DNA of 64,000 nucleotides, from NCBI GenBank assembly GCA_964626755.1, contig CAZVGO010000050.1, positions 203,960 to 267,959 of the forward strand. The letters run 5' to 3'. Shown here in pieces: positions 8,129 to 37,893 of this stretch (position 1 is its first letter; every line of letters starts with the position of its first letter). Below the pieces are notes generated by a model. It was given only the letters and a program-made list of their open reading frames with translations, did not search any database and had not been told where the DNA came from. A program made the position numbers and the translations under genes. Source of the stretch: an uncultured Anaerolineaceae bacterium (GTDB lineage: Bacteria; Chloroflexota; Limnocylindria; Limnocylindrales; CSP1-4).

Positions 8129-8785
8129 CTACCACTCGCCCTCCCGGTAATTCCGGTAGCCGAGCCGGCGGAGGTGGCGGAGAAGATGGCGACGCCAGTC
8201 CTTCACCGGGATCTCGCCGAAGTCGCGCATCCACTCGGCAGCCTGCTGGGTCACCTCCTCGCCCCGCTCGGCGCGCGCCCTCAGGTCCACGTCCACCCAC
8301 GTCTCGATCCGGGCCTTCCACTCGGGAATGTGGGTCGACGACAGTTCCCGGCTCCTCAGGGCGCGCAGCTCATCGGCGATTGCGTCGAGCTCGGACTCGC
8401 GTTGGAGCTCGGCCTCGCGGATGGCCTGCCGCTCGCGAGACTCGCCCTCCTCGACGGGGATTGCAGGCCCTTCGCCGGGTGCCGGACCGGTCGCGATCGA
8501 CGCGTCTGCTTCGGCCGGCCAGAGTCCTAGTGGCTCGGACGGCGGCTTGCCGGCGTCGACGGGCGGCCCGGCGGGTGGGATGTCCTCAACCGGGCGCGGT
8601 TCGGCGGGTCGCGGTTCGGCAGATCGTGTTCGACGGCGCAGCCAGACGCCCGCGACGACGGCGAGCGCCCCCGCGAGAACAATCGATGCGGCAGCGACCG
8701 GCGGGCTCCCGAGTGCCCCGAGCAGGGCACCGAAGACTGCCAGCAGCAGGCCGAGCAGGACGACCGCGCGATGCACTGGAGTCAT
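8129..8785 (-). CDS. Hypothetical membrane-anchored protein with Pro-rich linker and charged coiled-coil C-terminus
   Basis: Two N-terminal hydrophobic helices, a PAEPRPAEPRP segment, then an E/R-rich helical region. No recognisable family. Confidence 0.4.
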   Translation of the reverse strand: MTPVHRAVVLLGLLLAVFGALLGALGSPPVAAASIVLAGALAVVAGVWLRRRTRSAEPRPAEPRPVEDIPPAGPPVDAGKPPSEPLGLWPAEADASIATGPAPGEGPAIPVEEGESRERQAIREAELQRESELDAIADELRALRSRELSSTHIPEWKARIETWVDVDLRARAERGEEVTQQAAEWMRDFGEIPVKDWRRHLLRHLRRLGYRNYREGEW

Positions 8786-8837
8786 CCTAACCGCCCCGCA
8801 ATGGCCTCAGGAGAGCACGTGAGAGCCCCTCGCCTGT

Positions 8838-8866
8838 TTGACCGAGCAGGGCAAACTGCCTAGAAT
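8838..8866 (+). promoter_or_regulatory. Sigma70-like promoter for tRNA-fMet (TTGACC-N17-TAGAAT)
   Basis: ttgacc at 8838-8843 and tagaat at 8861-8866 with a 17-bp spacer. The -10 ends 7 nt before the first tRNA nucleotide. Confidence 0.6.
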
Positions 8867-8873
8867 GTGTGGT

Positions 8874-8948
8874 CGCGGGGTGGAGCAGCGGCAGCTCGTC
8901 GGGCTCATAACCCGAAGGTCGGAGGTTCGAATCCTTCCCCCGCAACCA
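8874..8948 (+). tRNA. Initiator tRNA-fMet (anticodon CAT)
   Basis: Cloverleaf readable by eye: acceptor CGCGGGG/CCCCGCA with a C1:A72 mismatch, D-arm GAGC, anticodon stem with three consecutive G-C pairs (GGGCTCATAACCC), T-arm GGAGGTTCGAATCC, and an encoded CCA. These are the hallmarks of a bacterial initiator tRNA. Confidence 0.9.
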
Positions 8949-8963
8949 ATCGCATTCATCTCG

Positions 8964-9001
8964 AACCCCGGGTCCCGACCACCCGGGGTTCTTCCTTTTC
9001 T
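8964..9001. terminator. Bidirectional intrinsic terminator (10-bp GC stem, 7-nt loop, T-rich tail)
   Basis: aaccccgggt-cccgacc-acccggggtt followed by cttccttttct. Lies between the tRNA 3' end and the convergent stop codon (9000-9002) of the ABC permease that ends the cox operon. Confidence 0.65.
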
Positions 9002-9746
9002 AGTCCCATCGGAACGTGAACGCGGCGAGCGCCGTCGAGAGGGCGGCCCACGCGGCGAGCAACGCGAGCGGTGGACCGGGCTCGCCAACAGCCCCGAAGG
9101 CGATCCGCAACAGCTCGGTCAGCGGCGCTGCCGGGACGAACGACGCGAGCGCGGCGAGCTCGCGCGGCAGGTCGCCGATCGGGATCACGATCCCGCCGAG
9201 CAGGAGGAACACGAGGAAGAGGCCGTTTGCCAGCGCGAGCGTCGCCTCGGTGCGCAGCCGGCCGGCCATCGCGAGGCCGAGACCTGCGAACGCGATCGTG
9301 CCGAGCAGCAGCGCGACGATCGCGAGGCCGGGCGAGATGGCGGCAGCAGGCCGCCAGCCGAGGACGAACCAGGCGATCGCGAGGAGCAGTGCGATCTGGA
9401 TCAGCTCCACGAGGACGATGGCGATGACCTTCGCCCCGAGCAGCCCCCAGCGTGGGAGCGGCGAGCCACCGAGGCGCTTGAGGACGCCGTACCGGCGCTC
9501 GTAGGCGGTCGCGATCCCGAGGTTGACGAGGCTCGTCGCGATGACCGCGAGGGCGATCGATCCGGGCAGCAGGAAGTCGACGGCCCGGCCCGGAGTGCGC
9601 AGGACGTTGACCGAGGCGAAGAACTGCAGCACGGCGGCCGGAATCACGATCGTGACGAGCAGGTTCTCGCCACGCCGGGCAAGGAGGCGCAGCTCCATCG
9701 CCGTAACCGCGAGCGTCGCCCGCAATGCGGGTGCCGGAGCGCTCAT
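9000..9746 (-). CDS. ABC-2 type transporter permease
   Basis: Six hydrophobic segments typical of ABC-2 permeases. The start is placed at Met of MSAPAPALRATLAVTAMELRLL, overlapping the ATPase stop (ATGA). The longer ORF-track version overlaps the ATPase gene. Confidence 0.7.
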   Translation of the reverse strand: MSAPAPALRATLAVTAMELRLLARRGENLLVTIVIPAAVLQFFASVNVLRTPGRAVDFLLPGSIALAVIATSLVNLGIATAYERRYGVLKRLGGSPLPRWGLLGAKVIAIVLVELIQIALLLAIAWFVLGWRPAAAISPGLAIVALLLGTIAFAGLGLAMAGRLRTEATLALANGLFLVFLLLGGIVIPIGDLPRELAALASFVPAAPLTELLRIAFGAVGEPGPPLALLAAWAALSTALAAFTFRWD

Positions 9747-10726
9747 TCGTGGCTCCGGGCGACGTCGCGGTCGCCGGTAAGCTCGAGGTAACGGTCCTCC
9801 AGCCCGGCACCGGCTCGCAGCTCCGCGATCAGCGTATGGTGCTCGCCCGCCCACGCGGCCACCGCGGCGACGAGCGCGGGATCCGGGACCACGCCGGTGA
9901 TGACGACCGCCTCGCCGCTGCCGGTGTCCGCCGTGACCGAGAGCCTCGGCCAGCGGGCGGCAAGCGCGCCCTGGAGGACAGACGAGTCGATCGACCTGTC
10001 GAACCGGATCCGGAGCAGCGCCCGTCCGCTCGCCGCGACCTCGGCCGGCGTACCGAGCGCGACGATCCGGCCGCGGTGGAGGATCGCCACGCGGTCGGCG
10101 AGCCGCTCGACGTCGACGAGGTCGTGCGTGGTCAGCAGGACGGACACGCCGTCGTCCCTCAGCCCGCGGACCAGCTCCCGGGTGACCGCGCGCGCCGCCG
10201 GATCCATGCCCGCGGTCGGCTCGTCGAGGATGGCGAGCTCGGGCCGCCCCACGAGCGCCAGCGCGAGGCCGAGTCGCTGCCGCTCGCCGCCGGACAGGCG
10301 ACGGACCGGGGTCCGGGCGGCGACCCGCAGGCCGACGAGGTTGAGGAGCTCCTCCGGGTCGCGCGGATCCGCATGGAGCCGGGCGAACAACTGGAGCAGC
10401 TCGCGCGGTTTGGCGCGCGGGTCGAGACCGCCGCCCTGGAGCATGAGGCCCACCCGGGCGCGCAACACGCGGCCGCCGCGAGCCGGATCAGTGCCGAGGA
10501 CCGACACCGTCCCGCCGTCGGCCCGCCGGTAACCCTCGAGGATCTCGACGGTCGTCGTCTTGCCGGCGCCGTTCGGGCCGAGAAGCGCAAAGACCTCGCC
10601 GGCGGGGACCTGGAATGACACCCCATCCAGCACCGTTTGCTCGCCGTACCGCTTGACGAGCCCGTCGACCTTCACGGCCGGGCCGGACGTCGCCCTCGGC
10701 TCGGCCGGGCGGACCGCGGCCGTCAC
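9743..10726 (-). CDS. ABC transporter ATP-binding protein (partner of ABC-2 permease)
   Basis: Walker A GPNGAGKTT, signature LSGGERQRL, Walker B ILDEPTAGMD, H-loop. GTG start overlaps the tlpA stop (GTGA). Confidence 0.85.
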   Translation of the reverse strand: MTAAVRPAEPRATSGPAVKVDGLVKRYGEQTVLDGVSFQVPAGEVFALLGPNGAGKTTTVEILEGYRRADGGTVSVLGTDPARGGRVLRARVGLMLQGGGLDPRAKPRELLQLFARLHADPRDPEELLNLVGLRVAARTPVRRLSGGERQRLGLALALVGRPELAILDEPTAGMDPAARAVTRELVRGLRDDGVSVLLTTHDLVDVERLADRVAILHRGRIVALGTPAEVAASGRALLRIRFDRSIDSSVLQGALAARWPRLSVTADTGSGEAVVITGVVPDPALVAAVAAWAGEHHTLIAELRAGAGLEDRYLELTGDRDVARSHE

Positions 10727-11259
10727 GGCACGATCGTCGCGTACTGGCGCTCGAACACGGCCTCGGTCACCTCGCCGATCTGGATCGTCCGGAGGATCCC
10801 GTCCACGTCGATGAAGTACGTCTGTGGCCGGGCGGCGACCCGGTAGGCGGACCGGATCTTCTCACCTGGATCGATGACCGTTGGCCAGTCCGCCCCGAGG
10901 GCGGCGACGAAGTCGCGGGCCGGTTCCGGTGGGTCCCACATCAGCACGCCGACGATCGCCAGCCCGTCGGCGGCATGCTCCGCGAGCTTCGTCTTGAACA
11001 GCGGGAACTCGTCACGGCACGGGACGCAGCCCGGCCCCCAGAAGTTGACGATCACCGGGCGGCCGCGGAGGTCGGCCAGCCTGAACTCGGCTCCGTCGAG
11101 GGTGACCCCCGCGATGTCCGGGGCAGGTTGATCGCGGGCGATCACCCCTCCGGCGGCAGGGTCGGTCAGCCGGACGATCGCGACGACCAATGCCGTCGCG
11201 GCAACGGCGACGGCGAGAGCGAGGAGGATCGGGCGTCGAAGCGTGATGGCCTTCGTCAC
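10723..11259 (-). CDS. tlpA: TlpA/ResA-like membrane-anchored thiol:disulfide oxidoreductase (thioredoxin fold)
   Basis: N-terminal TM anchor (ILLALAVAVAATALVVAIV), then VIVNFWGPGCVPCRDEFP (CxxC). GTG start overlaps the stop of the upstream cupredoxin gene. Only the last 179 aa of the 499-aa ORF are real. Confidence 0.75.
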   Translation of the reverse strand: MTKAITLRRPILLALAVAVAATALVVAIVRLTDPAAGGVIARDQPAPDIAGVTLDGAEFRLADLRGRPVIVNFWGPGCVPCRDEFPLFKTKLAEHAADGLAIVGVLMWDPPEPARDFVAALGADWPTVIDPGEKIRSAYRVAARPQTYFIDVDGILRTIQIGEVTEAVFERQYATIVP

Positions 11260-12341
11260 CCGCCCGCGGTGAGCGTTCCCGTCATGTTGGCGTGGAACGT
11301 GCAGAAGAAGGTGTACGTTCCCGCCGCCAACGGCGGGACGTCCTCTACGACCTGGCCGGGACCCGTGACGTCCACACCGTTGAAGATGATCCCCGAGTCG
11401 CCCCGGATCGAGACGTCGTGGGGGACCCCGGTGTCCCGGTTGTCGAACGCGATCGTGAACGGCGCATCTGCCGGCGCGGTCACGTCGGCCTTGTCGAACT
11501 CGATGTTCTGCGCGACGAGCACGATGTCCCCCACGAGGGGCGGACCCGACTCGCCGGGCGGCGGACCCGACGCGCCGGGCGGCGGACCCGACGCGCCCGG
11601 TTCCTCGCCACCGACGACGGCCGGCCCGCGGGGTGGCAAGATGCCGAGATCGACGACGACGGCGAACAGCACGAGGACCGCGAAGACCGTCAGGACGCGT
11701 TTCGGCCAACCGGGCGCCGACAGGCTCTCGAGGTGGCCTGTCTGGTCCGCCTCGATCTGCTTGACGTACTCCTGGCGCGCATCGAACAGCCAGCCGACCA
11801 GGGTCGCGATGAGGAACAGGATCCCGACCAGCAGGAGCCAACCGCCGAACACGAGCCCGAAGAAGAAGACCATGAGGGCGAGTGACGCGAGCACGGGCCG
11901 GAACGATGGCCCCGGCAGGTGGACGCCGGGCGGCGGGGTCCCGTGGATGACCGCCGGCAGCCGCTCGGCGTGGACCACCCGATCGTAGTCGGCGAGCGCC
12001 TCGCGACCCCAGTACAGCAGCGAGATCGCGAGCGCCACGATGCCCACCCAGATCCACGAACCCCCGACCACGAGCCCGAAGAGCAGGAGGAACGTGCCGA
12101 TCGACACGAAGATCGGGGCGAATGACGGCCCGGGCAGATGGACGCCCTGCGGCGGAAGGGGAGTGACCCGCCGCTTCCCGCGCCGCGTCGGGCCGGCGGT
12201 CGCGAACTTCCGGATCGTCCACAGGAGCCAGAGCACGACGATCCCGAGGAGCCCGACCGGGAGGAGCGCGATCAACGCACCCCAGTCGGGAATGACGAAT
12301 TGGGAGATGAAGTCGAGGATCGAGTTCCAGATTTCGTTCAC
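11256..12341 (-). CDS. Membrane-anchored type-1 copper (plastocyanin/amicyanin-like) cupredoxin with duplicated N-terminal two-helix module
   Basis: C-terminal HDV...YTFFCTFHANMTG gives a His/Cys/His/Met type-1 Cu ligand set. The N-terminus carries two copies of P-x-GVHLPGPSF-x-P, each followed by two TM helices. A GASGPPPGASGPPPGESGPP linker joins the halves. GTG start. Confidence 0.7.
   Translation of the reverse strand: MNEIWNSILDFISQFVIPDWGALIALLPVGLLGIVVLWLLWTIRKFATAGPTRRGKRRVTPLPPQGVHLPGPSFAPIFVSIGTFLLLFGLVVGGSWIWVGIVALAISLLYWGREALADYDRVVHAERLPAVIHGTPPPGVHLPGPSFRPVLASLALMVFFFGLVFGGWLLLVGILFLIATLVGWLFDARQEYVKQIEADQTGHLESLSAPGWPKRVLTVFAVLVLFAVVVDLGILPPRGPAVVGGEEPGASGPPPGASGPPPGESGPPLVGDIVLVAQNIEFDKADVTAPADAPFTIAFDNRDTGVPHDVSIRGDSGIIFNGVDVTGPGQVVEDVPPLAAGTYTFFCTFHANMTGTLTAGG
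11538..11610 (-). repeat. In-frame tandem repeat (about 3 imperfect units of 24 bp) encoding GASGPPPG linker
   Basis: cggacccgac-tcgccgggcg-gcggacccga-cgcgccgggc-ggcggacccg-acgcgcccgg is directly visible. It lies inside the cupredoxin CDS. Confidence 0.6.
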
Positions 12342-12359
12342 GGGGTGGCTACTGTCGCC

Positions 12360-12554
12360 TCACTCGTTCGGCGAGCCGGCGATGAGGACGTAGGCCATGA
12401 GTGCCATCGCGATCCCGAGCGCCCCGAGCATCGTCACCCCGGCATAGTCGATGTGCCAGTCGCCCACGTACGGGACGACCCAGTACACGAAGCCGATGAC
12501 GACGAACAGGATCCCGACGAAGATCGCGTTCCGCGGGTGCCGCAGCGGGTGCAT
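12360..12554 (-). CDS. ctaF: Small two-helix membrane protein, putative cytochrome oxidase subunit IV-like
   Basis: 64 aa with two hydrophobic helices, placed between coxC and the cupredoxin gene with a strong GGGGAGA RBS. The assignment rests on position and size only. Confidence 0.45.
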   Translation of the reverse strand: MHPLRHPRNAIFVGILFVVIGFVYWVVPYVGDWHIDYAGVTMLGALGIAMALMAYVLIAGSPNE

Positions 12555-12569
12555 CCCAGGTCTCCCCGG

Positions 12570-13220
12570 CTACAGGATGTAGAGCGTCGAGAAGAGCGCG
12601 ATCCAGACCACGTCGACGAAGTGCCAGTAGATCGACGTCGCCTCGACGGCATCGTGATGGCGGGCGCTGAACTGTCCGGCCATCCCCCGGTAGAGCACCA
12701 CGCCCAGCATGATCACCCCGCCGAAGACGTGGGCGCCATGGAACCCGGTGAGCGTGTAGAAGGTCGTGCCGAACACCCCGTCGGCGAGCCCGAATCCGAG
12801 GGTCGTGTAGTCGTAGGCCTGGCCAAGCAGGAAGACGATCCCGAGGATCAGCGTCACCGCGATGTTCCGGATGAAGCCGGTCCGGTTGTTCTCCCGGATC
12901 GCCCAGATCGCGAACTGGCACGTGAAGGAGCTCAGGACGAGGATCACGGTCAGGCCGAGGGCCAGCCAGGGCTCGGCCTTGAGGTGGTGGAAATGCTCCG
13001 CGAGCTCCTCGGTGACCGCGGGCGGGCCGGGCGGCCAGCTCGCCGCGGTCGCGCGGACGTTGAAGTAGGCGGCAAACAGCCCGGCGAAGAACATGACCTC
13101 GGAGGTGATGAACAGGATCATCCCGAGGACCGGGTTGCTGATTCCGCCCCGCTCGTCGTGGGCGAGGGCCGCGACCGGGCTGTGTTCGTGGATGGCCACG
13201 GCGTGGGCGTCGCCGGTCAT
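12570..13220 (-). CDS. ctaE: Cytochrome c oxidase subunit III
   Basis: FFAGLFAAYF...TGFHGAHVFGG...SIYWHFVDVVW, conserved CoxC motifs. The start is placed at Met of MTGDAHAV, overlapping the ctaD stop (ATGA). Confidence 0.8.
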   Translation of the reverse strand: MTGDAHAVAIHEHSPVAALAHDERGGISNPVLGMILFITSEVMFFAGLFAAYFNVRATAASWPPGPPAVTEELAEHFHHLKAEPWLALGLTVILVLSSFTCQFAIWAIRENNRTGFIRNIAVTLILGIVFLLGQAYDYTTLGFGLADGVFGTTFYTLTGFHGAHVFGGVIMLGVVLYRGMAGQFSARHHDAVEATSIYWHFVDVVWIALFSTLYIL

Positions 13221-14923
13221 GGCTCCTTCCTCGTTCGCCGCGCAGGAGCCGGCTGCGCCGCGGCGGTCGGGTCGGTCGGGACGGGTAGCACAACCCGCGC
13301 GTGGGTTCGGCCGTGGCGCAGGTCGAAGAGCGGACGCTCCGAGCGGATCTCGGGCAGGCGATCGAAGTTGTACGGCGGGGGCGGCGAGGTCGTCGCCCAT
13401 TCGAGCGTGTTGCCCTCCCACGGGTCGTCGCCGGCGATCGCCCCGTTGCGGAGCGAGACGAACACGTTCCACAGGAACGGCACGGTGCTCACCGCGATGA
13501 CGAACCCGCCGATCGTCGCAGCGAGGTTCAGCTCGTTCCAGCCGGCCGTGCCCGCGTAGTCGGCGATGCGCCGGGGCATGCCCTGCAGGCCGAGGACGTG
13601 CATCGGGAAGAACGTCAGGTTGAACCCGATGAGCATCAGCACGAACTGGAGCTTGCCGAGGCCTTCGCTGAGCATCCGGCCGGTCATCTTCGGGAACCAG
13701 TAGTAGATGCCGGCAAAAACGCCGAACACGGAGCCGCCGAACAGCACGTAATGGAGATGGGCGACGACCCAGTACGTGTCATGGAGCGCAAAGTCCACCG
13801 GCACGGCCGCGCTGAATGCCCCGTTGATCCCGCCGATGAGGAACATGGTCAGGAAGCCGAGCGCGAACAGGAGCGGCGTCGACAGGGTCAGCTTGCCGCG
13901 GAACAGGGTGAAGATCCAGTTGAACATCTTCACCCCGGTCGGGACCGCGATGAGGAACGTCATCAGGCTGAAGAACGGCAGGTAGACAGCCCCGGTCGTG
14001 AACATGTGGTGGGCCCACACCGAGAACCCGAGGGCGCCGATCCCGGCGGTCGCGAAGATGAACGCCTTGTAGCCGAACAACGGCTTTCGGGAGAAGACCG
14101 GCAGGATCTCGCTGATCATCCCCATGGCGATCAGGATCATGATGTAGACCGCCGGGTGGGAGTAGAACCAGAAGACGTTCTGCCACAGGACGGCATTGCC
14201 GCCGGTCGCCGGGTCGAAGAAGTGACCGCCGTAGTTCCGGTCGATGAACAGCATGATCAGGGCGCTCGTGAGGACCGGCGTGGCCATCAGTACGAGCACG
14301 CTCGTGACGAGCGCCGTCCAGACGAGGATCGGCATCCGGAAGAGGGTCATGCCGGGCGCCCGCATCTTGAAGATCGTGACGATGAAGTTGACGGCGCCGA
14401 GGATCGAGGCGGTGCCGATGAGCATGAGCCCGACCAGCCAGAGGTCCTGGCCCGGCCCGGTCGAGGCGAGCGGGCGGTCCTGGGCCAGCGGGCTGTACGC
14501 CGTCCAGCCTGTGGACGCAGCCCCGCCGGCGAGGAAGCCCGAGCCCATGAGGATGCCGCCCAGCGGCAGCAGCCAGAACGACAGCGCGTTGATCCGGGGG
14601 AACGCCATGTCCGGCGCCCCGATCTGGAGCGGCACGATGTAGTTCGCGAAGCCGGCCAGGATCGGGATCACGAACAGGAACAGCATGAACGAGGCGTGCA
14701 TCGTGAAGGCCTGGTTGTAGAGGCCCTCATCGGACAGGAACTGCAGCCCCGGCACGGCGAGCTCCGTGCGAACGACCAGCGCGAGGATGCCGCCCAGGAA
14801 GAAGAAGACGAACGAGTTGACGATGTAGAGGATCCCGATCTTCTTGTGATCGGTCGTCGTCAACCACACGTACAGGCCGCTCCGATAGCCGGCGGCGGCG
14901 GGCGTCAGCGCAGTGGTCGCCAT
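13217..14923 (-). CDS. ctaD: Cytochrome c oxidase subunit I (heme-copper oxidase catalytic subunit)
   Basis: 568 aa with 12 TM helices. Contains WFYSHPAVY, HHMFT and the His ligands VAHLHYVLFGG. Confidence 0.9.
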   Translation of the reverse strand: MATTALTPAAAGYRSGLYVWLTTTDHKKIGILYIVNSFVFFFLGGILALVVRTELAVPGLQFLSDEGLYNQAFTMHASFMLFLFVIPILAGFANYIVPLQIGAPDMAFPRINALSFWLLPLGGILMGSGFLAGGAASTGWTAYSPLAQDRPLASTGPGQDLWLVGLMLIGTASILGAVNFIVTIFKMRAPGMTLFRMPILVWTALVTSVLVLMATPVLTSALIMLFIDRNYGGHFFDPATGGNAVLWQNVFWFYSHPAVYIMILIAMGMISEILPVFSRKPLFGYKAFIFATAGIGALGFSVWAHHMFTTGAVYLPFFSLMTFLIAVPTGVKMFNWIFTLFRGKLTLSTPLLFALGFLTMFLIGGINGAFSAAVPVDFALHDTYWVVAHLHYVLFGGSVFGVFAGIYYWFPKMTGRMLSEGLGKLQFVLMLIGFNLTFFPMHVLGLQGMPRRIADYAGTAGWNELNLAATIGGFVIAVSTVPFLWNVFVSLRNGAIAGDDPWEGNTLEWATTSPPPPYNFDRLPEIRSERPLFDLRHGRTHARVVLPVPTDPTAAAQPAPARRTRKEP

Positions 14924-14933
14924 CCGAGCTCCC

Positions 14934-16061
14934 TTACTGGACCGTCAAGATGCCGGTCATCGCCGGGTGGAAGGTGCAGAAGAACGTGTACGTGCCGGCC
15001 GCGAGCGGCGGAACGTTGTCGACGACTCTGGCGGGACCGGTCACATCCTGGCCATTGAACACCAACCCGGTGTCGTTGCGAATCGCGACGTCGTGCTGGA
15101 TCCCGGCGTCCCGGTTGTCGAAGTCGATCGCGAACGGCTCGTCCGCGGGAGCTTCCAGCGCGGCCTTGTCGAACGCGACGGCGGACGCGACAAGGACGAG
15201 GGTAACGGCGGGCGGCGCCGCGCTGCCGGACGGAGCGGGCGTGGCCCGCGCCTTGTCGACCTGCTCCTGGAGCCACGTGTCGAACTCCGCCCCGCCGAGC
15301 GCATGGACCTGGAACGTCATCGTGCGGTGGCCGACGCCGCACAGCTCGGCGCACTGACCGCCGAACGACTGACCGGCCTCGTCCTCGTTCAGGCGGAACT
15401 CGAACCGGTTGACCTGGCCGGGCACGACGTCGCGCTTGTACAGGAAGCGCGGCACGTAGAACGCGTGGATGACGTCCGGGCTCTCGAGCTGGACCTGGAC
15501 GTTTCGCCCGACCGGCACGCTCAGCCCTCCGCCGGGACCCTCCGGGATGACCTGGGTGAACGCCTCCGTGACGCCATCCTCCGCGAGGTAGACGAACTGC
15601 CAGTTGAACTGGCCGGCGATCGCCTTCACTCTCAGGTCCGGCGTCGCCGAGACGGCCTCGACGGTGTTGAGGCTTTGCCACGAGATGTAGAACAGGAATG
15701 CCACGATGATCGTCGGGATGAGCGTCCACGAGATCTCGGCGATGTTGTTGCCGTGGGTCTGGGGCGGCAGCTCGTTGTCGCCCGGCTTGCGCCGGTAGCG
15801 AATGACGCTCCAGACGATGAGCCCCTCGACGAGGAGGAAGATCGCGGCCGCGAACCAGAAGACGATGTCGTAGAGGTTCCGGATCTCCTGCCCCTGCGAG
15901 GTCGCGGCCTTGAGCGGGAACATGCTATCGAGCGCTCTCCGGAGGCCGCCCAGCACGTCAGTCCCGAGGACGACGATCAGCGCGATGAGCGCCAGGGCAG
16001 CGACCACGAGCCCGATCGCGATTGCGCCGGGCGCGGGTCTTGACCGTGGGCGACTCGACAT
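14934..16061 (-). CDS. ctaC: Cytochrome c oxidase subunit II (CuA) fused to a C-terminal type-1 copper cupredoxin domain
   Basis: Two N-terminal TM helices and the CuA site H...CAELCGVGHRTM. After an Ala/Pro linker comes a plastocyanin-like domain ending YTFFCTFHPAMTG. There is no CxxCH heme-c motif. ATG start with an AGGAC RBS. Confidence 0.8.
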   Translation of the reverse strand: MSSRPRSRPAPGAIAIGLVVAALALIALIVVLGTDVLGGLRRALDSMFPLKAATSQGQEIRNLYDIVFWFAAAIFLLVEGLIVWSVIRYRRKPGDNELPPQTHGNNIAEISWTLIPTIIVAFLFYISWQSLNTVEAVSATPDLRVKAIAGQFNWQFVYLAEDGVTEAFTQVIPEGPGGGLSVPVGRNVQVQLESPDVIHAFYVPRFLYKRDVVPGQVNRFEFRLNEDEAGQSFGGQCAELCGVGHRTMTFQVHALGGAEFDTWLQEQVDKARATPAPSGSAAPPAVTLVLVASAVAFDKAALEAPADEPFAIDFDNRDAGIQHDVAIRNDTGLVFNGQDVTGPARVVDNVPPLAAGTYTFFCTFHPAMTGILTVQ

Positions 16062-16223
16062 CGGGTGTCCTCGGTGATCTCGGCGCCGCCAGGACCAGGC
16101 GGGCCTCCGGGGAGTTCGTCAGGGCGTCCGGCGGGACGGCCGGACGCGGGCATTCTACCCGGACGGCGTGGCCGGCGCGCGCGTCGGCCGGTGATCGGAC
16201 TCACACAGCGGGTTCGGGAGACA

Positions 16224-17270
16224 ATGCGGCCGATGGCCGTTCTCCGAACCCTCGCCGCGTCCGCGGCCGCAGCCCTGCTGGCGATCGCCTGCAGCGCGCC
16301 GGTTTGGGCCCATGGGACGGCCGACGTCGGGCCACCGGACGCGGCCGCATTCCTGTTCGGCTGGACGTTCGAGCCGCTCGTCGCGATACCGTTGCTCGTG
16401 GCCGCGCTGGCCTGGATCGCGGCGGTCCGGAGGGTGAACGCGGCGCACCCGGCGAACCCGGTGCCGCGCGCGCGGAATGTCGCGTTCCTCGGGGGCCTGT
16501 TCGCGATCGCCGTTGCGTTGCTCTCCGGCATCGAGCGCTACGACACCGTGCTCTTCTCGGTCCACATGGTCCAGCACATCATCCTCACCCTGGTCGCGCC
16601 ACCGCTCATCGCCCTCGGTGCCCCGATTACCCTGCTCCTCCGCCTCGCGCGACCCGAGACGCGGCGGCGGTGGATCCTGCCCGTGCTCCACAGCCGGGTC
16701 GTCCGGGCGCTCTCCTTCCCGGTCGTCGCCTGGGTGCTGTTCGCGGGCGTCATGTGGGCGACCCACTTCTCGGCGGTGTTCGACCGCGCGCTGGAGGACC
16801 CGCTCGTCCACTACGTAGAACACGCGGCATACCTCGGAGCCGGGTTCCTCTTCTGGTGGCCGGCCATCGGCCTCGACCCGACGCCGTGGCGGATGAGCCA
16901 CCCCGTGCGGGCGCTGTACGTGTTCCTCCAGATGCCCCAGAACACGTTCCTCGCGGTCGCGATCCTCTCGGCGACCACCCCGTTGTATGCGCATTACGCG
17001 ACGCTCGCGCGATCGTGGGGCCCGAGCCCGCTCGCGGATCAGCAGGCGGCGGCCGGGATCATGTGGTTCGTGGGCGATCTGCTGTTCCTTGCCGCGATCC
17101 TCGGCCTTGTGGCGGCGTGGATGCGCCACGAGGAGCGCTCCACGGCTATCGCTGACCGGCGGGCGGACACGGCCCGCGCCGGAATGACGGCACGCGAGGC
17201 GCGCCAAGCGGAGCGGCTGGCCGAGGAGCGGGGGAGCGCGGCTTCCCCCAGCGAGCCCCAATCGAGGTAG
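16224..17270 (+). CDS. ctaG: Caa3-type cytochrome oxidase assembly factor CtaG-like polytopic membrane protein
   Basis: Multi-TM protein with conserved His-containing segments (HMVQHIILT, VHYVEHAAY). Divergent from ctaC. The upstream ORF-track extension (from 16065) overlaps the ctaC start and promoter and is rejected. Confidence 0.55.
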   Translation: MRPMAVLRTLAASAAAALLAIACSAPVWAHGTADVGPPDAAAFLFGWTFEPLVAIPLLVAALAWIAAVRRVNAAHPANPVPRARNVAFLGGLFAIAVALLSGIERYDTVLFSVHMVQHIILTLVAPPLIALGAPITLLLRLARPETRRRWILPVLHSRVVRALSFPVVAWVLFAGVMWATHFSAVFDRALEDPLVHYVEHAAYLGAGFLFWWPAIGLDPTPWRMSHPVRALYVFLQMPQNTFLAVAILSATTPLYAHYATLARSWGPSPLADQQAAAGIMWFVGDLLFLAAILGLVAAWMRHEERSTAIADRRADTARAGMTAREARQAERLAEERGSAASPSEPQSR

Positions 17271-17335: not shown

Positions 17336-18337
17336 TCAGCCCGGGATCGGCGCCGCCAGGTACTCCCGGTAGCGTTCCGGATCGACGTTCCCGCCGCTGA
17401 CGATCCCGACGACGGGTCCGCCGGCGGCGTCCAGCCCGGCCTCGCGCGAGCGGAACCGCATCACTGCCACGGCCAGCGCCCCGGACGGCTCGGCGACGAG
17501 CCGGCTCTCCTCGGCCGCCAACCGGACCCCGGCCGCGATCTCCTCCTCCGTCACGGTGACGATCGCGTCGAGCAGCGCGGACAGGTGGGCGAACGTCCGT
17601 AGGCCCAGGGAGGTCGTTCGGGTGCCATCGGAGATCGTCCGTCCCACCTTCTCGGCGGGCCACGCGACGATCCGGCCGGCCGCGAGCGAGTCGCGTGCGT
17701 CGGCCGCGAGCTCCGGCTCGACACCGATGATCCGCGCCTTCGGCACCAGTGCCCGGACCGCCACTGCAACACCGCTCGCCAGCCCGCCCCCGCCGACGGG
17801 CACGACCACCGCGGCAAGGTCGGGAAGCGCCTCGGCGATCTCGAGCCCGACGGTGCCCTGCCCGGCGATGATCCGGTCGTCGTCGAACGGCGGGATGATC
17901 GCGAGGCCGTCCCGTGCCGCGCGCTCCTCGGCGACCTGCCGCCGCTCGTCGCTCGACGGCCCCACCCAGACGATCTCTGCTCCGTCCGCGGCGACCCGCG
18001 CCGCCTTGATTGCGGGCGCGTCGCTCGGCATGACGATGACCGCCGGCGCGCCGAGCAGCCGGGCGGCCCGCGCCACTCCCTGGGCGTGGTTACCGGACGA
18101 GTACGTGATGACGCCGCGGCGGCGTTCGACCTCGCTCAGCGACGCGATCGCCACGTACGCTCCCCGGATCTTGAACGCCCCGATTGGCTGAAGCGACTCG
18201 GCCTTGAGGAAGCGTCGGTCGATGGGCGGGCCGAACGGGACGAGCGGCGTCGGCGTCGCGATGCCCCGGAGGAGCGATGCGGCACGCCGGACGTCGTCGA
18301 GGCCGACGAGTCCCGCTGTCGGAGGGGCATCGGTCAC
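17336..18337 (-). CDS. Threonine/serine dehydratase (PLP-dependent, fold type II, short catabolic form)
   Basis: LKAESLQPIGAFKIRGA (PLP-binding Lys), YSSGNHAQG, GGGGL. GTG start at VTDAPP. The upstream 140 aa of the ORF are Arg/Pro-rich and low-complexity. Confidence 0.8.
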   Translation of the reverse strand: MTDAPPTAGLVGLDDVRRAASLLRGIATPTPLVPFGPPIDRRFLKAESLQPIGAFKIRGAYVAIASLSEVERRRGVITYSSGNHAQGVARAARLLGAPAVIVMPSDAPAIKAARVAADGAEIVWVGPSSDERRQVAEERAARDGLAIIPPFDDDRIIAGQGTVGLEIAEALPDLAAVVVPVGGGGLASGVAVAVRALVPKARIIGVEPELAADARDSLAAGRIVAWPAEKVGRTISDGTRTTSLGLRTFAHLSALLDAIVTVTEEEIAAGVRLAAEESRLVAEPSGALAVAVMRFRSREAGLDAAGGPVVGIVSGGNVDPERYREYLAAPIPG

Positions 18338-18678
18338 CGCGCGCCCCGTCCGATCTCGCGCTGGCAGTCGATGCAGTGGGCCGCCCAGGGCAGTGCTTCG
18401 AGCCGTTCGGGCGAGATCGGTCGGCCGCAGCGCCGGCACGTCCCGAACGTGCCGTCGTCGAGCCGGCCGAGGGCGGCGTCGACCAGCTCGAGCTGCTGGC
18501 GAGCCCGGTCGCGGAGGGCGAGGTCGCGCTGCTGCTCGAATACCTGGCTCGCGGCGGCGGCCTGCGAGCCGTAGGTCATCGTGCCGGGCGGCGTGATCGT
18601 CTCGGCCACCTCGGCCTCGAGGCGTGACCGCTCGGCGAGCAGGGCGGCGCGTGCGGAGTCGAGGTCGAGGGCGGGCAC
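18334..18678 (-). CDS. DksA/TraR-family C4 zinc-finger protein
   Basis: C-terminal CRRCGRPI...CIDCQ four-Cys finger after a coiled-coil region. Overlaps the dehydratase start by 4 nt. Confidence 0.6.
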   Translation of the reverse strand: MPALDLDSARAALLAERSRLEAEVAETITPPGTMTYGSQAAAASQVFEQQRDLALRDRARQQLELVDAALGRLDDGTFGTCRRCGRPISPERLEALPWAAHCIDCQREIGRGAR

Positions 18679-18762: not shown

Positions 18763-18933
18763 ATGGCGCTCGAAACCGATCCGGTGTGCGGAATGCAGGT
18801 CGACACAGATACGTCCGACCTGAAGACCGAGCACGACGGCAAGACGTACTGGTTCTGCGGGCGGGGCTGCCTGCTCGAGTTCCGCGACGACCCGGAGAAA
18901 TACCTCGACCCGAGCCATCAGCCGTCGATGTGA
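18763..18933 (+). CDS. YHS/TRASH-domain metal-binding protein (56 aa; missing from ORF track because it is under 60 aa)
   Basis: MALETDPVCGMQVDTDTSDLKTEHDGKTYWFCGRGCLLEFRDDPEKYL is a near-canonical YHS domain. AGGAGG RBS 5 nt upstream of the ATG. Confidence 0.7.
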   Translation: MALETDPVCGMQVDTDTSDLKTEHDGKTYWFCGRGCLLEFRDDPEKYLDPSHQPSM

Positions 18934-31308: not shown

Positions 31309-32490
31309 ATGACCGACACTGCCGCCCGACCGGCGGGCACGCCCGCCGCGAACCAGGCTGGCGCCCGCGTCAACCAGGACGCCTACGCGGAAGCCAAGGA
31401 CTTCCTGCCGCTCAACGGCATCGACCACGTCGAGTTCTGGGTCGGCAACGCCCGGCAGGCCTCGGCGTACTACCGCGCCCTTTGGGGCTTCACCCCGGTT
31501 GCCTTCTCCGGGCTCGAGACCGGCGTCCGGGACCGGGCGAGCTACGTCATGCGCCAGAACGACATCACGTTCGTGTTCACGGCGCCACTCACGCCCGATG
31601 GGGAGATCGCCGAGCACGTCCGCGAGCACGGTGACGGGGTCCACGACATCGCCTTCGCCGTCGACGATGTCGAGTCGGCGTTCCGGGAGACGACGAGTCG
31701 CGGCGCCCATCCCGCCCAGGAGCCGGCCGAGCTCGACGGCGGCGAGGACGGAATCCTCCGCCGCGGTGCCGTCGGCACGTACGGCGAGACGCTCCACTCG
31801 TTCGTCGATCGGCGCGACTACCACGGCGCGTTCGCCCCCGGGTACCGGAAGGTGAAGAAGCCGGCCAGGGCCGCCGGCGGCCTGTCGCTCCTCGAGGTCG
31901 ATCACTGCGTCGGCAACGTGGCCCTCGGCGAGATGAACAAATTCGTTGACTTCTACCGCGACGTGTTCGGGTTCAGCCAGCTCATCCATTACGACGACAA
32001 AGTCATCCACACCGAGTACTCCGCGCTCATGTCGAAGGTCATGACCAACGGCAACGGCCGGATCAAGTTCCCGATCAACGAGCCCGCGACCGCGAAGAAG
32101 AAGAGCCAGATCCAGGAGTACCTCGACTGGTACCGCTCGCCGGGCTGCCAGCACATCGCGCTCCGGACGGAGAAGATCGTCGAGACTGTCGGCCGGCTGC
32201 GCGAGAACGGGGTCGAGTTCCTCGGCCTGCCGCACGAGTATTACGCGACGCTCGCGGACCGGGTGGGCGATGTCGGCGTGCCGATCGATACGCTCGAGGA
32301 GCTCGGGATCGAGGCCGACCGGGACGAGGAGGGCTACCTCCTCCAGATCTTCACGCGCCCCGTCCAGGACCGCCCGACGTTCTTCTTCGAGATCATCGAA
32401 CGGCACGGCTCGCGCGGCTTCGGGGTCGGTAACTTCAAGGCGCTGTTCGAGGCGATCGAGCGGGAGCAGGCGAAGCGCGGGAACCTCTGA
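31309..32490 (+). CDS. hppD: 4-hydroxyphenylpyruvate dioxygenase
   Basis: Two VOC modules, IDHVEFWV, HIALRT, and the C-terminal FFFEIIERHGSRGFGVGNFKALFEAIE signature. Confidence 0.9.
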   Translation: MTDTAARPAGTPAANQAGARVNQDAYAEAKDFLPLNGIDHVEFWVGNARQASAYYRALWGFTPVAFSGLETGVRDRASYVMRQNDITFVFTAPLTPDGEIAEHVREHGDGVHDIAFAVDDVESAFRETTSRGAHPAQEPAELDGGEDGILRRGAVGTYGETLHSFVDRRDYHGAFAPGYRKVKKPARAAGGLSLLEVDHCVGNVALGEMNKFVDFYRDVFGFSQLIHYDDKVIHTEYSALMSKVMTNGNGRIKFPINEPATAKKKSQIQEYLDWYRSPGCQHIALRTEKIVETVGRLRENGVEFLGLPHEYYATLADRVGDVGVPIDTLEELGIEADRDEEGYLLQIFTRPVQDRPTFFFEIIERHGSRGFGVGNFKALFEAIEREQAKRGNL

Positions 32491-32566
32491 GCTCTGTTAC
32501 GGCCGCTTCCTTCGCTAACTCCAAACCCTGTGCCAGTACGCAGGGTGGCGCGGCCACTCTCTCACC

Positions 32567-33040
32567 GTGCATCACGTCACCGACACCCCGGCGCCGGCGC
32601 CTTCACTGAACCGGCTCGCGGCATCGGCTACGACCCACTGCCTCACGGGCTGCGCGATCGGAGAGGTTCTCGGTCTCGTCGTCGCGTCCGCCCTCGGCTG
32701 GCCGGTCGCGGCCTCGATCGCCCTTGCTATCGTCCTGGCGTTCGCCTTCGGGTATTTGCTGACGCTGCGGCCGCTCGTCGTCGGCGGGCTCGCCCTCGGC
32801 GACGCCGCACGCCTCGCGTTTGCCGCCGACACGCTCTCGATCACAGTGATCGAGATCACAGACAACGCGGTGATCCTGGCGGTTCCGGGAGCGATGGACG
32901 CGGGCCTCGAGGCACCACTGTTCTGGGGTGCGCTCGCCTTCTCGTTGCTGATTGCCTGGATCGTGGCGTTCCCCGTAAACCGCTGGCTGATCGCCCGAGG
33001 CCGCGGCCACGCCGTCGTGCATGGCCGCGGCCATCAGTGA
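32567..33040 (+). CDS. Small membrane protein with HCLTGCAIGE motif (DUF4396-like)
   Basis: Four hydrophobic helices and a conserved Cys pair near the N-terminus. The family assignment is from memory. Confidence 0.4.
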   Translation: MHHVTDTPAPAPSLNRLAASATTHCLTGCAIGEVLGLVVASALGWPVAASIALAIVLAFAFGYLLTLRPLVVGGLALGDAARLAFAADTLSITVIEITDNAVILAVPGAMDAGLEAPLFWGALAFSLLIAWIVAFPVNRWLIARGRGHAVVHGRGHQ

Positions 33041-33058
33041 GCCGGTCCCCGGGCGCGG

Positions 33059-33874
33059 CTATTGAGCCCCGACGAACTCGAGGGTGGCGAGCAGCCGATC
33101 GAGGGACGCAACGGCGGCGTCGAATTTGTCCGGCGTCGCGGCGACCACCACGTTGATGCCCTGTCCCGGGCCCGTCCGGACCTCGACGAATCGCCAGCGC
33201 TCCGGGAACGGCTGCCGATCCCACGAGCCCCCGCTCCAGCGAAATACCCTGTCCGGAGGGCCCGGATCCACGTCCATGTCGATGACGGTTGCCGGGTATC
33301 CTCCGACAGTCGTCGACCGTGGCTGCCCTACCGTGAGGAAGGTCTTGGTCCGCAGCCAGGCCACAAGATCCGCTGGCCAGGGCTCGGGTGGGTCTGCGAC
33401 TCCCGCGCCGGAGACTTGCAACGACGCAATGCTTCCGACACCTCCGACGTACGGATAACTCCACCCGATCCCGTCGTTGACGTCGAAGTCCAAACGGAAG
33501 CCGTCAACGAGCAGGAAGGAAATCGGGACCTCCATCGCCTTGGACGTGTAGACGATCTCCGTCGGCGCCGGTGATGGCGGTGTCGTGTCCGGAACCGGGG
33601 ATGGGGAAGCCGTGGGAGTGCCGATCCCGGAATCGGTCGGTCGGCCGGCAATGGCCAGGGCAACGACCGCAACGAGGATGACGGCTGCCGCGGCGGCAAT
33701 CATGCGCTGCGTGGTGTTCACGTGGATGTCCTTCCAGTTGAGGCGCCACGCGGGTCGCTGAGGCTGTCGCCCGATCCGGTCCGCGACCACGTCGATGACG
33801 CGATCGGGGACCTCCGTCGGACCGTCGGCGAACCAGCGGTCGAGGAGTCGTTCGATGTCGCGATCGGGCTTCAT
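33059..33874 (-). CDS. Anti-sigma factor-like single-pass membrane protein
   Basis: Cytoplasmic N-terminus, a TM helix (MIAAAAAVILVAVVALAIAG), a Pro/Thr-rich linker and an extracytoplasmic domain. Its start overlaps the stop of the ECF sigma gene. Confidence 0.55.
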   Translation of the reverse strand: MKPDRDIERLLDRWFADGPTEVPDRVIDVVADRIGRQPQRPAWRLNWKDIHVNTTQRMIAAAAAVILVAVVALAIAGRPTDSGIGTPTASPSPVPDTTPPSPAPTEIVYTSKAMEVPISFLLVDGFRLDFDVNDGIGWSYPYVGGVGSIASLQVSGAGVADPPEPWPADLVAWLRTKTFLTVGQPRSTTVGGYPATVIDMDVDPGPPDRVFRWSGGSWDRQPFPERWRFVEVRTGPGQGINVVVAATPDKFDAAVASLDRLLATLEFVGAQ

Positions 33875-34497
33875 GCCGAACGACCTCCCGGGATGGCAAC
33901 TCGGGCGTCCGCCTCGAGGGCGGCCCGCATGGCGCGATGGGCGTGATGGAGTCGAGAGCGGGCGGTGCCCGCGGGAATGCCGAGCGTCTCGGCGATCTCG
34001 GCCGGGGCGAGGCCCACGAAGTGATGGAGCACGAGGATGGCCCGCTGTTCGGGCGGGAGCCGCCGGAAGCCACGCTCCAGCTGGTCCCGGTCGGCGATCG
34101 TGAGCAGTTCGTCCGGCGCGGCCGGCCCGTCGACCGGCAGCACGCGGAGGTTCATGACCCGACGTCGCTCGCGCGTCGCCTGGGAGATGCAGACGTTGAC
34201 CAGGAGGCGGTGCAGCCATGCGTCGAATCGGTCCGGATCGCGGAGTCCCTTCAGGTCGCGCCAGGCGATCACCAGTGCGTCCTGGAGGGCATCCTCGGCC
34301 CGATCGGCATCGCGGAGGATCCGCTGTGCGATTGCGAAGAGCCTGTCACTTCGAACGCGGATCAGGTCGACGTATGCCTCCCGATCCCCGTTTCGCGCAG
34401 AGTCGACGAGATCGCGATCCACCTGCTCTGCCCCTCGTGCGCCCAGCGGGGGGCGCCGTCCAACCCTAATGGTGGGACGCCGGCCGGCAGCGTTCAT
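33871..34497 (-). CDS. ECF-type RNA polymerase sigma-70 factor
   Basis: Region 2 (DALQDALVIAWRDL) and region 4 HTH (ILVLHHFVGLAPAEIAETLGIPAGTARSRL). The true start is probably an internal GTG near 34425. Confidence 0.75.
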   Translation of the reverse strand: MNAAGRRPTIRVGRRPPLGARGAEQVDRDLVDSARNGDREAYVDLIRVRSDRLFAIAQRILRDADRAEDALQDALVIAWRDLKGLRDPDRFDAWLHRLLVNVCISQATRERRRVMNLRVLPVDGPAAPDELLTIADRDQLERGFRRLPPEQRAILVLHHFVGLAPAEIAETLGIPAGTARSRLHHAHRAMRAALEADARVAIPGGRSA

Positions 34498-34553
34498 TCA
34501 TTACAAAGAGGGCTGGACCCTGCGGCTAGACTCGCGGCGGGAAGGAGGGTGCG

Positions 34554-35048
34554 ATGGAGTGGTACCCGTGGGTCGTGTTCGTCCACGTGGCGGCGTCATT
34601 CCTGTTCTTCATGGGCCACGGAGCCTCGATGTGGGTGTCCGACCAGGTCCGCCGGGAGCGTGACCCGGTGCGGATCCGGTCGCTGCTCGAGCTGTCCAGC
34701 CGCAGCCTGGGGCTCGTCTACGCATCGCTCGTGGTCCTTCTCGTTGCGGGGATCGCGGCCGGAATCATGGGCGGGCACTTCGGCCGGGGGTGGATCTGGG
34801 CGGCGATCGTCGTCCTCGTCGCTCTCATCGTGCTGATGTACGTGCTCGCGTCGCGCTACTACGGGCGCGTCCGCGAAGCCGTCGGGATCCGCTCGTACCT
34901 GACGCCGAAGGGCGCCCCTGACCCCACGCCGGCCGCCCCACAGGAGCTCGCCGCCCTGCTCGATTCGCGGCGGTCGGACGTCATCGGGCTCGTCGGGATC
35001 CTCGGGCTCCTGGTCATCCTCTGGCTGATGTACTTCAAGCCGTTCTGA
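34554..35048 (+). CDS. Hypothetical 4-TM membrane protein (possibly DUF2269-like)
   Basis: Four hydrophobic helices. Divergent from the sigma factor gene. Confidence 0.4.
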   Translation: MEWYPWVVFVHVAASFLFFMGHGASMWVSDQVRRERDPVRIRSLLELSSRSLGLVYASLVVLLVAGIAAGIMGGHFGRGWIWAAIVVLVALIVLMYVLASRYYGRVREAVGIRSYLTPKGAPDPTPAAPQELAALLDSRRSDVIGLVGILGLLVILWLMYFKPF

Positions 35049-35138
35049 CGGGCACCGAGAAACCGGGGCGCTGATCCGGGCGTATCGATGGGTGTCGCCA
35101 CGCGACACACACCCCCGATTTGCCAGAGGAGATTCACC

Positions 35139-35654: not shown

Positions 35655-35679
35655 GTCCACTCCCGGACGCGCTTCAATC

Positions 35680-35714: not shown

Positions 35715-35743
35715 CCGGATCGCCCCGGGGCTAGACTCGGGGC

Positions 35744-37890: not shown

Positions 37891-37893
37891 CCC

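Follow-up and report, generated by a model that had tools for sequence, protein, structure and literature searches.

A conserved oxidase operon of Limnocylindria with two cupredoxin domains at the putative electron entrance of an A2-type oxygen reductase

The window analysed here is the whole 64,000-nucleotide (nt) stretch of contig CAZVGO010000050.1 (NCBI GenBank assembly GCA_964626755.1, positions 203,960 to 267,959 of the forward strand) from an uncultured Anaerolineaceae bacterium of the order Limnocylindrales, and the system in question is a compact cluster of eight minus-strand genes, from 16061 down to 9000, built around a haem-copper terminal oxidase. This cluster rather probably encodes an A2-type oxygen reductase with two covalently attached type-1 copper (T1Cu) domains at its electron entrance, one fused to the C-terminus of subunit II and the other carried by a CtaF-like membrane protein. 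Blue-copper entry of electrons into CuA, already proposed in a preliminary description of this DNA, is the best and most economical reading of the sequence because a cupredoxin occupies the position of the cytochrome c domain of caa3 oxidases and because the ligand sets of both cupredoxins are invariant.

Gene layout and conservation of the cluster

The window has a G+C content of 72%, and the closest relatives of its proteins come from metagenome-assembled genomes (MAGs) labelled Chloroflexota or Candidatus Limnocylindrales. The genes and signals of the locus are the following:

16061-14934, minus: ctaC-cupredoxin fusion (Pfam COX2_TM, COX2 and Cupredoxin_1)
14923-13217, minus: ctaD (Pfam COX1, E = 3e-162)
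13220-12570, minus: ctaE (Pfam COX3, only profile positions 78-255 of 258)
12554-12360, minus: open reading frame of 64 amino acids with two transmembrane (TM) helices (no Pfam match)
12341-11256, minus: CtaF-like/cupredoxin fusion of 361 amino acids, hereafter F (Pfam Cyt_c_ox_IV and Cupredoxin_1)
11259-10723, minus: thioredoxin-fold gene, TlpA/ResA-like (Pfam AhpC-TSA/Redoxin)
10726-9743, minus: ABC ATPase, DrrA-like (Pfam ABC_tran)
9746-9000, minus: ABC-2 permease, DrrB-like (Pfam ABC2_membrane)
16191-17270, plus: divergent ctaG (Pfam Caa3_CtaG, E = 6.5e-76)
16152-16157, minus: candidate -10-like hexamer TAGAAT, 96 nt upstream of the ctaC start
8963-8991: GC-rich hairpin between the permease stop and a tRNA gene, a terminator for the plus strand only

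The preliminary description had placed the same eight genes at these coordinates, and its gene calls, the overlaps and the gaps of at most 18 nt are all confirmed, Pfam backing every gene except the 64-amino-acid frame. In operon order, the seven junctions are a gap of 10 nt, an ATGA overlap, gaps of 15 and 18 nt, two GTGA overlaps and a final ATGA overlap. The start of ctaG had been set at 16065; 16191 is most likely the correct one, since the former would leave only 3 base pairs between the divergent genes.

Conservation was assessed across 185,579 species, each represented by a single genome, of which 91 encode F; the best 80 of these 91 loci were used for the locus counts given here, and nearly all of them belong to MAGs of Chloroflexota/Limnocylindrales. 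The order ctaG / ctaC-cupredoxin, ctaD, ctaE, 64-amino-acid frame, F, tlpA-like gene, ABC ATPase and ABC-2 permease is essentially invariant in about 80 species, with median junctions of 10, 10, 13, 14, 10, -4 and -4 nt, and it extends beyond ctaG to a YHS gene, a DksA-type zinc-finger gene and a PALP enzyme gene, so that the claim of one compact unit holds across relatives. Moreover, the subunit II fusion has at least 120 metagenomic relatives, all of the same architecture except one truncated fragment, and F has 1,673; the source names of the two families are "cytochrome c oxidase subunit II", "plastocyanin", "cytochrome c oxidase subunit 4" and "cupredoxin domain-containing protein".

The cluster had also been called an island, a term that does not fit in its mobile sense. 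The G+C content at third codon positions (GC3) is 0.91-0.94 in the operon, as elsewhere, and the dip in overall G+C is due to codon positions 1 and 2 of the membrane proteins; no integrase is present beside the operon or the adjacent tRNA gene; and the flanks (PEP carboxylase, aminotransferase, PALP enzyme, ABC importer and ferredoxin genes) are syntenic in relatives. The typical GC3 and the syntenic housekeeping flanks therefore place the operon in the core genome.

The oxidase core

The product of ctaD contains the subunit I motifs PDMAFPR, PTGVK, HHMF and HLHYV, and it reads WFYSHPAVY where canonical enzymes have GHPEVY, the form FYSHPAVY recurring in all 65 related loci in which the motif was found. 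Its sequence assigns it to the A family of haem-copper oxidases, subtype A2, with the haem and CuB histidines, the cross-linked tyrosine in HPxVY, the D- and K-channel residues and the Tyr-Ser pair, and with no helix-VI glutamate. The A2 subtype is reportedly defined in the classification by Pereira and colleagues.

Subunit II, encoded by ctaC, consists of three predicted TM helices, a CuA domain (residues 143-255), a short linker of about 15 residues and a C-terminal cupredoxin (residues 287-374), in agreement with the fusion first noticed in this reading frame and now supported by three Pfam families in one protein. The CuA site follows the pattern of a histidine and then Cys-x-Glu-x-Cys-x3-His-x2-Met, with the motif CAELCGVGHRTM, and its residues H199, C237, E239, C241, H245 and M248 are invariant in 52 homologues. 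The protein passes the CoxB equivalog model of NCBIfam (TIGR02866; 167.9 bits, cut-off 147.7), and a quinol oxidase was rejected because the CuA site is intact. The AlphaFold2 model has a mean predicted local distance difference test (pLDDT) score of 82.9, rising to about 93 in the cupredoxin. By both sequence and fold, the best match in the PDB is subunit II of the Thermus thermophilus caa3 oxidase (2yev_B), and the alignment stops where the cytochrome c domain of Thermus begins, a place that is occupied here by the 88-residue cupredoxin. Instead of the C-terminal CxxCH cytochrome c domain typical of caa3 subunit II, the protein has Cupredoxin_1, and no CxxCH motif occurs in ctaC or in 78 homologues.

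Coverage of the COX3 profile indicates that ctaE encodes a five-helix subunit III without TM1-2, and its closest NCBIfam model is the actinobacterial aa3 CtaE, matched below the cut-off. The Pfam survey of the window finds no haem A or haem O synthase (COX15-CtaA, UbiA; ctaA/ctaB), so the aa3 type named in the preliminary description is only putative.

Two type-1 copper domains

The two cupredoxins lie at the C-termini of ctaC and F:

15203-14940, minus: cupredoxin of ctaC, ligands H323, C362, H365 and M368
11525-11265, minus: cupredoxin of F, ligands H308, C347, H350 and M353

By fold and ligand set, both are predicted to be type-1 (blue) copper cupredoxins and, by extension, to hold copper. 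Each has the T1 pattern of an upstream histidine followed by Cys-x2-His-x2-Met, and these ligands are invariant in 52 homologues of the ctaC domain and 53 of the F domain and near-universal in the 62 ctaC and 75 F domains of the species-level genomes. The closest solved relatives in profile searches are auracyanin A (E = 3e-8) and amicyanin (1e-7), and the top matches in Foldseek are the auracyanins of Roseiflexus and Chloroflexus and amicyanin.

Aligned over 86 residues, the two domains of the window share 69% identity. Across 60 genomes, a domain resembles its partner in the same genome (median identity of 60%) more than it resembles orthologues or paralogues from other genomes (49-52%). A neighbour-joining tree of the cupredoxins resolves 26 interleaved clades instead of two, and the loci L015, L020 and L021 form one group that contains both domain types, recovered in 25 of 25 bootstrap replicates. 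The two cupredoxins appear to evolve in concert across the lineage, and the higher likeness within genomes is what would be expected for domains with shared partners. Recent gene conversion in this genome was considered and rejected (DNA identity of 72%, third-position identity of 57%, longest identical run of 15 nt). Homogenisation is visible at the level of the lineage. Synonymous sites between the two domains of this genome are saturated, so that any homogenisation here would be old, or else the similarity reflects shared docking partners.

Cupredoxins of this type are common, and 1,884 cluster representatives match at E <= 0.001 (P0241-P0390 among the matches listed). These relatives include anchored single domains with 58-62% identity, and many are arrays of two to four tandem domains; P0253 and P0273 are lipoprotein-type proteins with a large N-terminal domain, and P0247 and P0252 have four domains and come from low-GC organisms.

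The CtaF-like fusion protein

F is composed of TM1, two hairpins, TM6, a tether and the cupredoxin described above, and the AlphaFold2 model has six helices, a disordered segment at 240-260 and a cupredoxin with a pLDDT of about 97. Its parts between TM1 and the C-terminus are:

12140-11973, minus: hairpin A, residues 68-123
11921-11739, minus: hairpin B, residues 141-201, followed by TM6
11648-11526, minus: Pro/Gly-rich tether, residues 232-272
11525-11265, minus: cupredoxin, residues 273-359

The Pfam family Cyt_c_ox_IV (PF12270) matches residues 145-187 of F with 34.9 bits (gathering cut-off 26.9) and is recorded for most F homologues too. F matches only positions 83-125 of the 132 in this profile and departs from the full four-helix architecture of CtaF (about 130-140 amino acids). 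Residues 61-124 and 137-200 form a tandem duplication (44% identical, E = 4e-17), each copy of which opens with PPxGVHxPGPSF and continues with two helices. With a 53-sequence profile, hairpin B aligns with residues 9-65 of subunit III from Rhodobacter sphaeroides (E = 5e-4), a match also obtained with the single sequence, and, more weakly, residues 7-64 of mouse COX3. The helices that the hairpins resemble, TM1-2 of subunit III, are exactly the two that CtaE lacks. In Mycobacterium smegmatis, CtaE and CtaF together make up subunit III, CtaF supplying TM1-2, and the same subunits contact complex III (PMC8361435).

F is probably an integral oxidase subunit, in which the split-off subunit-III hairpin is present twice, since its hairpins correspond to the TM1-2 missing from CtaE. 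The "membrane cupredoxin" of the preliminary description is thus retained as a second, membrane-bound cupredoxin, but a role as a free carrier is unlikely for a protein with Cyt_c_ox_IV/CtaF hairpins. Positively charged loops precede each HxPGPS hairpin and are therefore predicted to be cytoplasmic, which would leave the C-terminal cupredoxin outside, on the CuA side; the modelled topology is consistent with such an outward-facing domain.

The 64-amino-acid protein is encoded between ctaE and F in 77 loci. It had been labelled subunit-IV-like, a relation that was not detected: its family has no match in Pfam, NCBIfam or PDB profile searches, and the Cyt_c_ox_IV/CtaF homology lies in the next gene, F. 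The possibility that it is the N-terminal half of CtaF was tried and dropped, a 27-homologue profile returning only noise from the PDB and Pfam at E-values up to 10.

Transcription signals

A hexamer of the class TAGAAT/TATCAT/TATGAT is located 96-121 nt upstream of ctaC in 56 of the 61 related loci that include this gene; in another four it lies elsewhere (-15 to -66), and it is absent in the remaining one (L055). Such hexamers occur only 10 times in the whole window, and none of that class is found on the minus strand between 15927 and 9000. The conserved hexamer is the probable promoter of the operon. No terminator-like site was found on the minus strand inside the cluster; a search for internal signals that could have split the unit thus returned no terminator and, downstream of 15927, no hexamer of this class. 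By strand, junctions, conserved order and signals, the eight genes are best described as a single predicted operon, and the signals fit one transcript.

The candidate 5' leader of about 90 nt (16062-16151) opens with the GC-rich hairpin GTCCGGCCGTCCCGCCGGAC. Rfam finds only the tRNA over 8700-16400, the ctaC leader remaining unmatched.

At the other end of the operon, the hairpin at 8963-8991 is built on a stem of 11 base pairs, 8 of them GC, and its T-run lies on the plus strand. Read on the minus strand, it is predicted to fold with -23.5 kcal/mol (z = -3.0) and is followed by CGAGAUGAAUG, with no U-tail. The strong terminator that the operon was said to share with tRNA-fMet is therefore upheld as regards the strength of the hairpin and the initiator type of the tRNA, but its T-run serves the tRNA strand only and the operon would meet a tail-less structure. 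The initiator-type tRNA-Met gene (8838-8948, plus), convergent with the operon, has a C1:A72 mismatch and a GGG/CCC anticodon stem, and it possesses the only full sigma-70-like promoter match of the region (TTGACC, a 17-nt spacer and TAGAAT).

Accessory genes

The start of the thioredoxin-fold gene overlaps the F stop by GTGA, and its product has an N-terminal hydrophobic anchor and a WGPGCVPC motif (active site CVPC) whose CxxC is kept in homologues. It scores below the NCBIfam cut-offs for ResA (92 against 170), DsbE (56 against 123) and TlpA (41 against 230); it has the anchored CxxC thioredoxin fold of this group, and the name TlpA-like is given to it by context only. The ABC ATPase matches the drrA model of NCBIfam (TIGR01188) with 200 bits, below the cut-off, and the closest model of the permease is TIGR00025 (Mtu_efflux, DrrB family), again below the cut-off, so the pair is classified from its sequence as DrrAB-like and not as NosFY- or CcmAB-type. 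A TlpA-like thiol-disulfide oxidoreductase, an ABC-2 exporter, the divergent ctaG and a nearby YHS gene had all been read from this region, and each of them is recovered with its family match.

The ctaG gene is divergent from ctaC in 63 loci. Beside it lie the genes for a PALP-dependent enzyme (17336-18337, minus), a DksA/TraR-type zinc-finger protein (18334-18678, minus) and a 56-amino-acid YHS protein (18763-18933, plus), a trio found in the same order in 41-58 related species. A P1B-type heavy-metal ATPase with an N-terminal HMA domain is encoded 33 kb from the operon (48903-51335, minus), and its probable role is to export copper or to supply it to cuproproteins.

Electron donor and competing explanations

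None of the 67 called genes of the window contains a CxxCH motif, and the Pfam survey of the same genes detects no cytochrome c, Rieske protein, cytochrome b, alternative complex III (ACIII), Sco or PCuAC. The motif is likewise missing from the operon proteins across 54-79 homologues per family. The earlier statement that the cluster has no cytochrome c domain and no qcr gene can thus be extended to the whole window. The genomic contexts of two relatives of the cupredoxins, the single-domain P0288 (L086) and the two-domain lipoprotein P0253 (L088, between uvrA and uvrC), hold no clue to the donor.

Several points weigh against blue-copper entry as the operating route. A donor complex is absent from the window and from the 10 kb on either side in related loci, and a cytochrome c-containing complex (ACIII or bc) could feed the copper domains; a 64-kb window is insufficient for claiming an organism without cytochrome c. 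An Actinomycetota operon (L087) encodes both a subunit II fused to cytochrome c and a membrane protein with three cupredoxins, and therefore the presence of cupredoxins in a cox operon is not in itself a sign that cytochrome c is lacking. Moreover, the Foldseek matches of the cupredoxins include non-carrier members of Cupredoxin_1 (FtrB/EfeO-type domains), all genomes with the cluster are MAGs, and co-transcription is deduced only from spacing, conservation and the absence of recognisable internal signals.

The non-carrier relatives raise the question of whether the cupredoxins are redox relays at all, since they could capture, store or deliver copper for the assembly of CuA and CuB in the manner of PCuAC or Sco. 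Several assembly functions are indeed gathered here (CtaG, the TlpA-like protein and, nearby, a YHS protein), genes for Sco and PCuAC are not seen in the window, and Cupredoxin_1 comprises copper-binding domains that are not carriers; but the ligands are the classical T1 set, a histidine and then Cys-x2-His-x2-Met, genuine electron carriers are closest to both domains in sequence as well as in fold, and the cupredoxin joins subunit II precisely where caa3 has its cytochrome c domain, all of which makes copper handling in place of electron relay very unlikely. It is also scarcely plausible that the domains collect electrons from an extracytoplasmic inorganic or high-potential donor, in a lithotrophic chain of the rusticyanin/AcoP kind that would not depend on quinol. 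The cox operons of iron oxidisers do contain cupredoxin genes (bioRxiv 10.1101/2020.03.01.968255; PMC8239418), and the anchored arrays of two to four domains of the same cupredoxin type would suit a wire-like role; however, the Pfam survey of the window returns no outer-membrane or multihaem component, Cyc2-like gene or other lithotrophy gene, the operon sits in a core, syntenic genome context, and the literature ascribes to the lineage an aerobic or facultatively aerobic metabolism but no lithotrophic trait.

A more serious competitor, although still the less likely option, concerns the distal part of the operon, which may be functionally apart from the oxidase, with the DrrAB-like pair being an ordinary efflux or lipid exporter that shares the transcript or merely the neighbourhood. 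In that case, the proposal that the operon has copper-centre maturation built in would fail for the ABC pair. The best NCBIfam matches of the pair are to generic DrrA/DrrB and NodI-type models, all below cut-offs, with no NosY/CcmB-type signature, and the ABC pair is missing from two lineages (L003/L013 and L004) in which the oxidase genes are complete and the tlpA-like gene is retained. Yet the pair directly follows the tlpA-like gene in 68 of the 70 loci that extend far enough, with median overlaps of 4 nt and down to about 43% F identity, a linkage that would be unusually stable between unrelated functions; a first view of the pair as a mere accessory, taken from L003 and L004, was reversed by this wider survey. 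A role of the ABC pair in copper maturation is suggested by the conserved linkage only.

Proposed mechanism

Blue-copper entry into an A2-type oxidase can be sketched as a series of steps in which we infer that the sites hold copper, in what order electrons move, that the genes are co-transcribed and that the subunits assemble. CtaE would contribute TM3-7 and F a TM1-2-type hairpin, subunit III being split as in actinobacteria. An upstream donor would reduce the tethered T1Cu of F, whose cupredoxin could reach a donor complex on its tether of about 40 residues, while the cupredoxin of subunit II would be held close. From F, electrons may pass to the T1Cu of subunit II or straight to CuA, and from there to haem a and the haem a3-CuB site. 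During assembly, the CVPC protein would most likely keep the CuA cysteines, and perhaps those of the T1Cu sites, reduced for metallation, and CtaG would serve CuB.

A bolder proposal, which we regard as unlikely at present, is that the terminal respiration of Limnocylindria works without cytochrome c: a quinol-oxidising complex would dock on the extra hairpin of F as an obligate supercomplex and pass electrons to the blue copper of F, then to the cupredoxin of subunit II and to CuA, with the TlpA-like protein and the ABC-2 exporter acting as a dedicated maturation system for four copper sites. If so, the all-copper entry module would be the first described in bacteria.

Significance

Soils, sediments and lakes harbour abundant Limnocylindria (Ellin6529, RIF-CHLX), none of which has, to our knowledge, been cultured. 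If the copper domains are the true entry point, T1Cu to CuA transfer would replace cytochrome c to CuA transfer in a whole bacterial class, a solution documented until now mainly in archaea (halocyanin, sulfocyanin). The published metabolic survey of Limnocylindria lists only "cytochrome c terminal oxidase"; should the reading prove true, an annotation as "cytochrome c oxidase" in metagenomes need not imply cytochrome c, and the finding would bear on the copper demand of these bacteria. It would also show the variation of subunits III and IV anew, with a split-off subunit III hairpin anchoring a redox domain. Moreover, covalent tethering would offer a naturally simplified system for the study of T1Cu-CuA intermolecular electron transfer. 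The interest of the operon would rise further if whole-genome analysis revealed a respiratory chain free of cytochrome c.

Other features of the window

On the plus strand, a cluster at 31309-39671 resembles aromatic amino-acid (homogentisate) catabolism and encodes a 4-hydroxyphenylpyruvate-dioxygenase-like protein of the glyoxalase fold, a fumarylacetoacetate hydrolase and a protein with the N-terminal domain of homogentisate dioxygenase. Within it, on the minus strand, are a gene for an extracytoplasmic function (ECF) sigma factor (33871-34422) and then a gene with no family (33059-33874). Further downstream (42610-45530, plus), a two-subunit 2-oxoacid:ferredoxin oxidoreductase (POR/POR_N, then TPP_enzyme_C) is flanked by genes for CBS-domain proteins, and the organism thus has genes for this enzyme as well as for an aerobic oxidase.

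Comparison with known systems

The operon shares with the caa3 oxidases of Thermus thermophilus (PDB 2YEV) and Rhodothermus marinus an A2-type subunit I with the YS motif and no helix-VI glutamate, together with an extra redox domain that is fused to the C-terminus of subunit II and would feed CuA. Unlike in caa3, the fused domain is a T1Cu cupredoxin and not a CxxCH cytochrome c, and a second redox domain is present on another subunit; whereas subunit III is fused to subunit I in Thermus, it is separate and split here. For each of subunits I, II and III, the NCBIfam model that comes closest is an actinobacterial one. The actinobacterial bcc-aa3 systems (M. smegmatis, M. tuberculosis, Corynebacterium glutamicum) have the same five-helix CtaE and a separate protein with the equivalent of subunit III TM1-2 (PF12270; PMC8361435). 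However, all actinobacterial models score below their cut-offs here, subunit I is A2-type and no QcrC-type dihaem partner is visible in the window; in contrast to actinobacterial CtaF, F contains only the C-terminal hairpin, which is duplicated, and has two extra helices and a fused cupredoxin.

Blue copper donors to oxidases are known from archaea, with sulfocyanin and SoxM in Sulfolobus acidocaldarius and halocyanin and ba3 in Natronomonas pharaonis (PMC3062577; PMC3750248). The likeness lies in the use of a blue copper protein instead of cytochrome c as the oxidase donor; the archaeal proteins are separate and belong to other cupredoxin subfamilies, whereas the present system is bacterial and has two domains fused to subunits. 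The auracyanin of phototrophic Chloroflexota is reported to be a membrane-tethered periplasmic T1Cu carrier (PMC10873879; PMC7439408). Auracyanin (Chloroflexus, Roseiflexus), which receives electrons from alternative complex III, is a protein of the phylum studied here, and no solved structure stands closer to the cupredoxins in the window by sequence and fold, but it is a free-standing anchored protein with only about 20% identity to them, and ACIII genes are not seen in the window.

Membrane-anchored cupredoxin genes inside cox operons are also found in the Acidithiobacillus rus operon ('cup'/AcoP) and in L087, where the cupredoxin gene is likewise followed by a TlpA-like redoxin and the domains are 49% identical to those of the window. 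Unlike those of the window, the cupredoxins of these operons are unfused to subunit II or to a subunit-III-like hairpin; they are accompanied by cytochrome c domains and by genes for the maturation of cytochrome c. L087 is a caa3-type operon of an Actinomycetota MAG (GCA_040880465.1, contig JBBDIK010000007.1) with the order DsbD_TM, ResB, CcsA, CoxB-cytochrome c, COX1 fused to Cyt_c_ox_IV, COX3, COX4_pro, CtaG, P0241 and TlpA-like redoxin; P0241 is its membrane protein with three tandem cupredoxins, and a fused CtaA-CtaB gene lies nearby.

No description of a cupredoxin-fused subunit II or of this respiratory design in Limnocylindria was met in the searched literature, whose coverage is incomplete and leaves room for an earlier mention. 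Compared with all of these systems, the operon is set apart by the fusion of a T1Cu domain to subunit II, by a second, paralogous domain on a duplicated CtaF-like hairpin and by the class-wide conservation of both.

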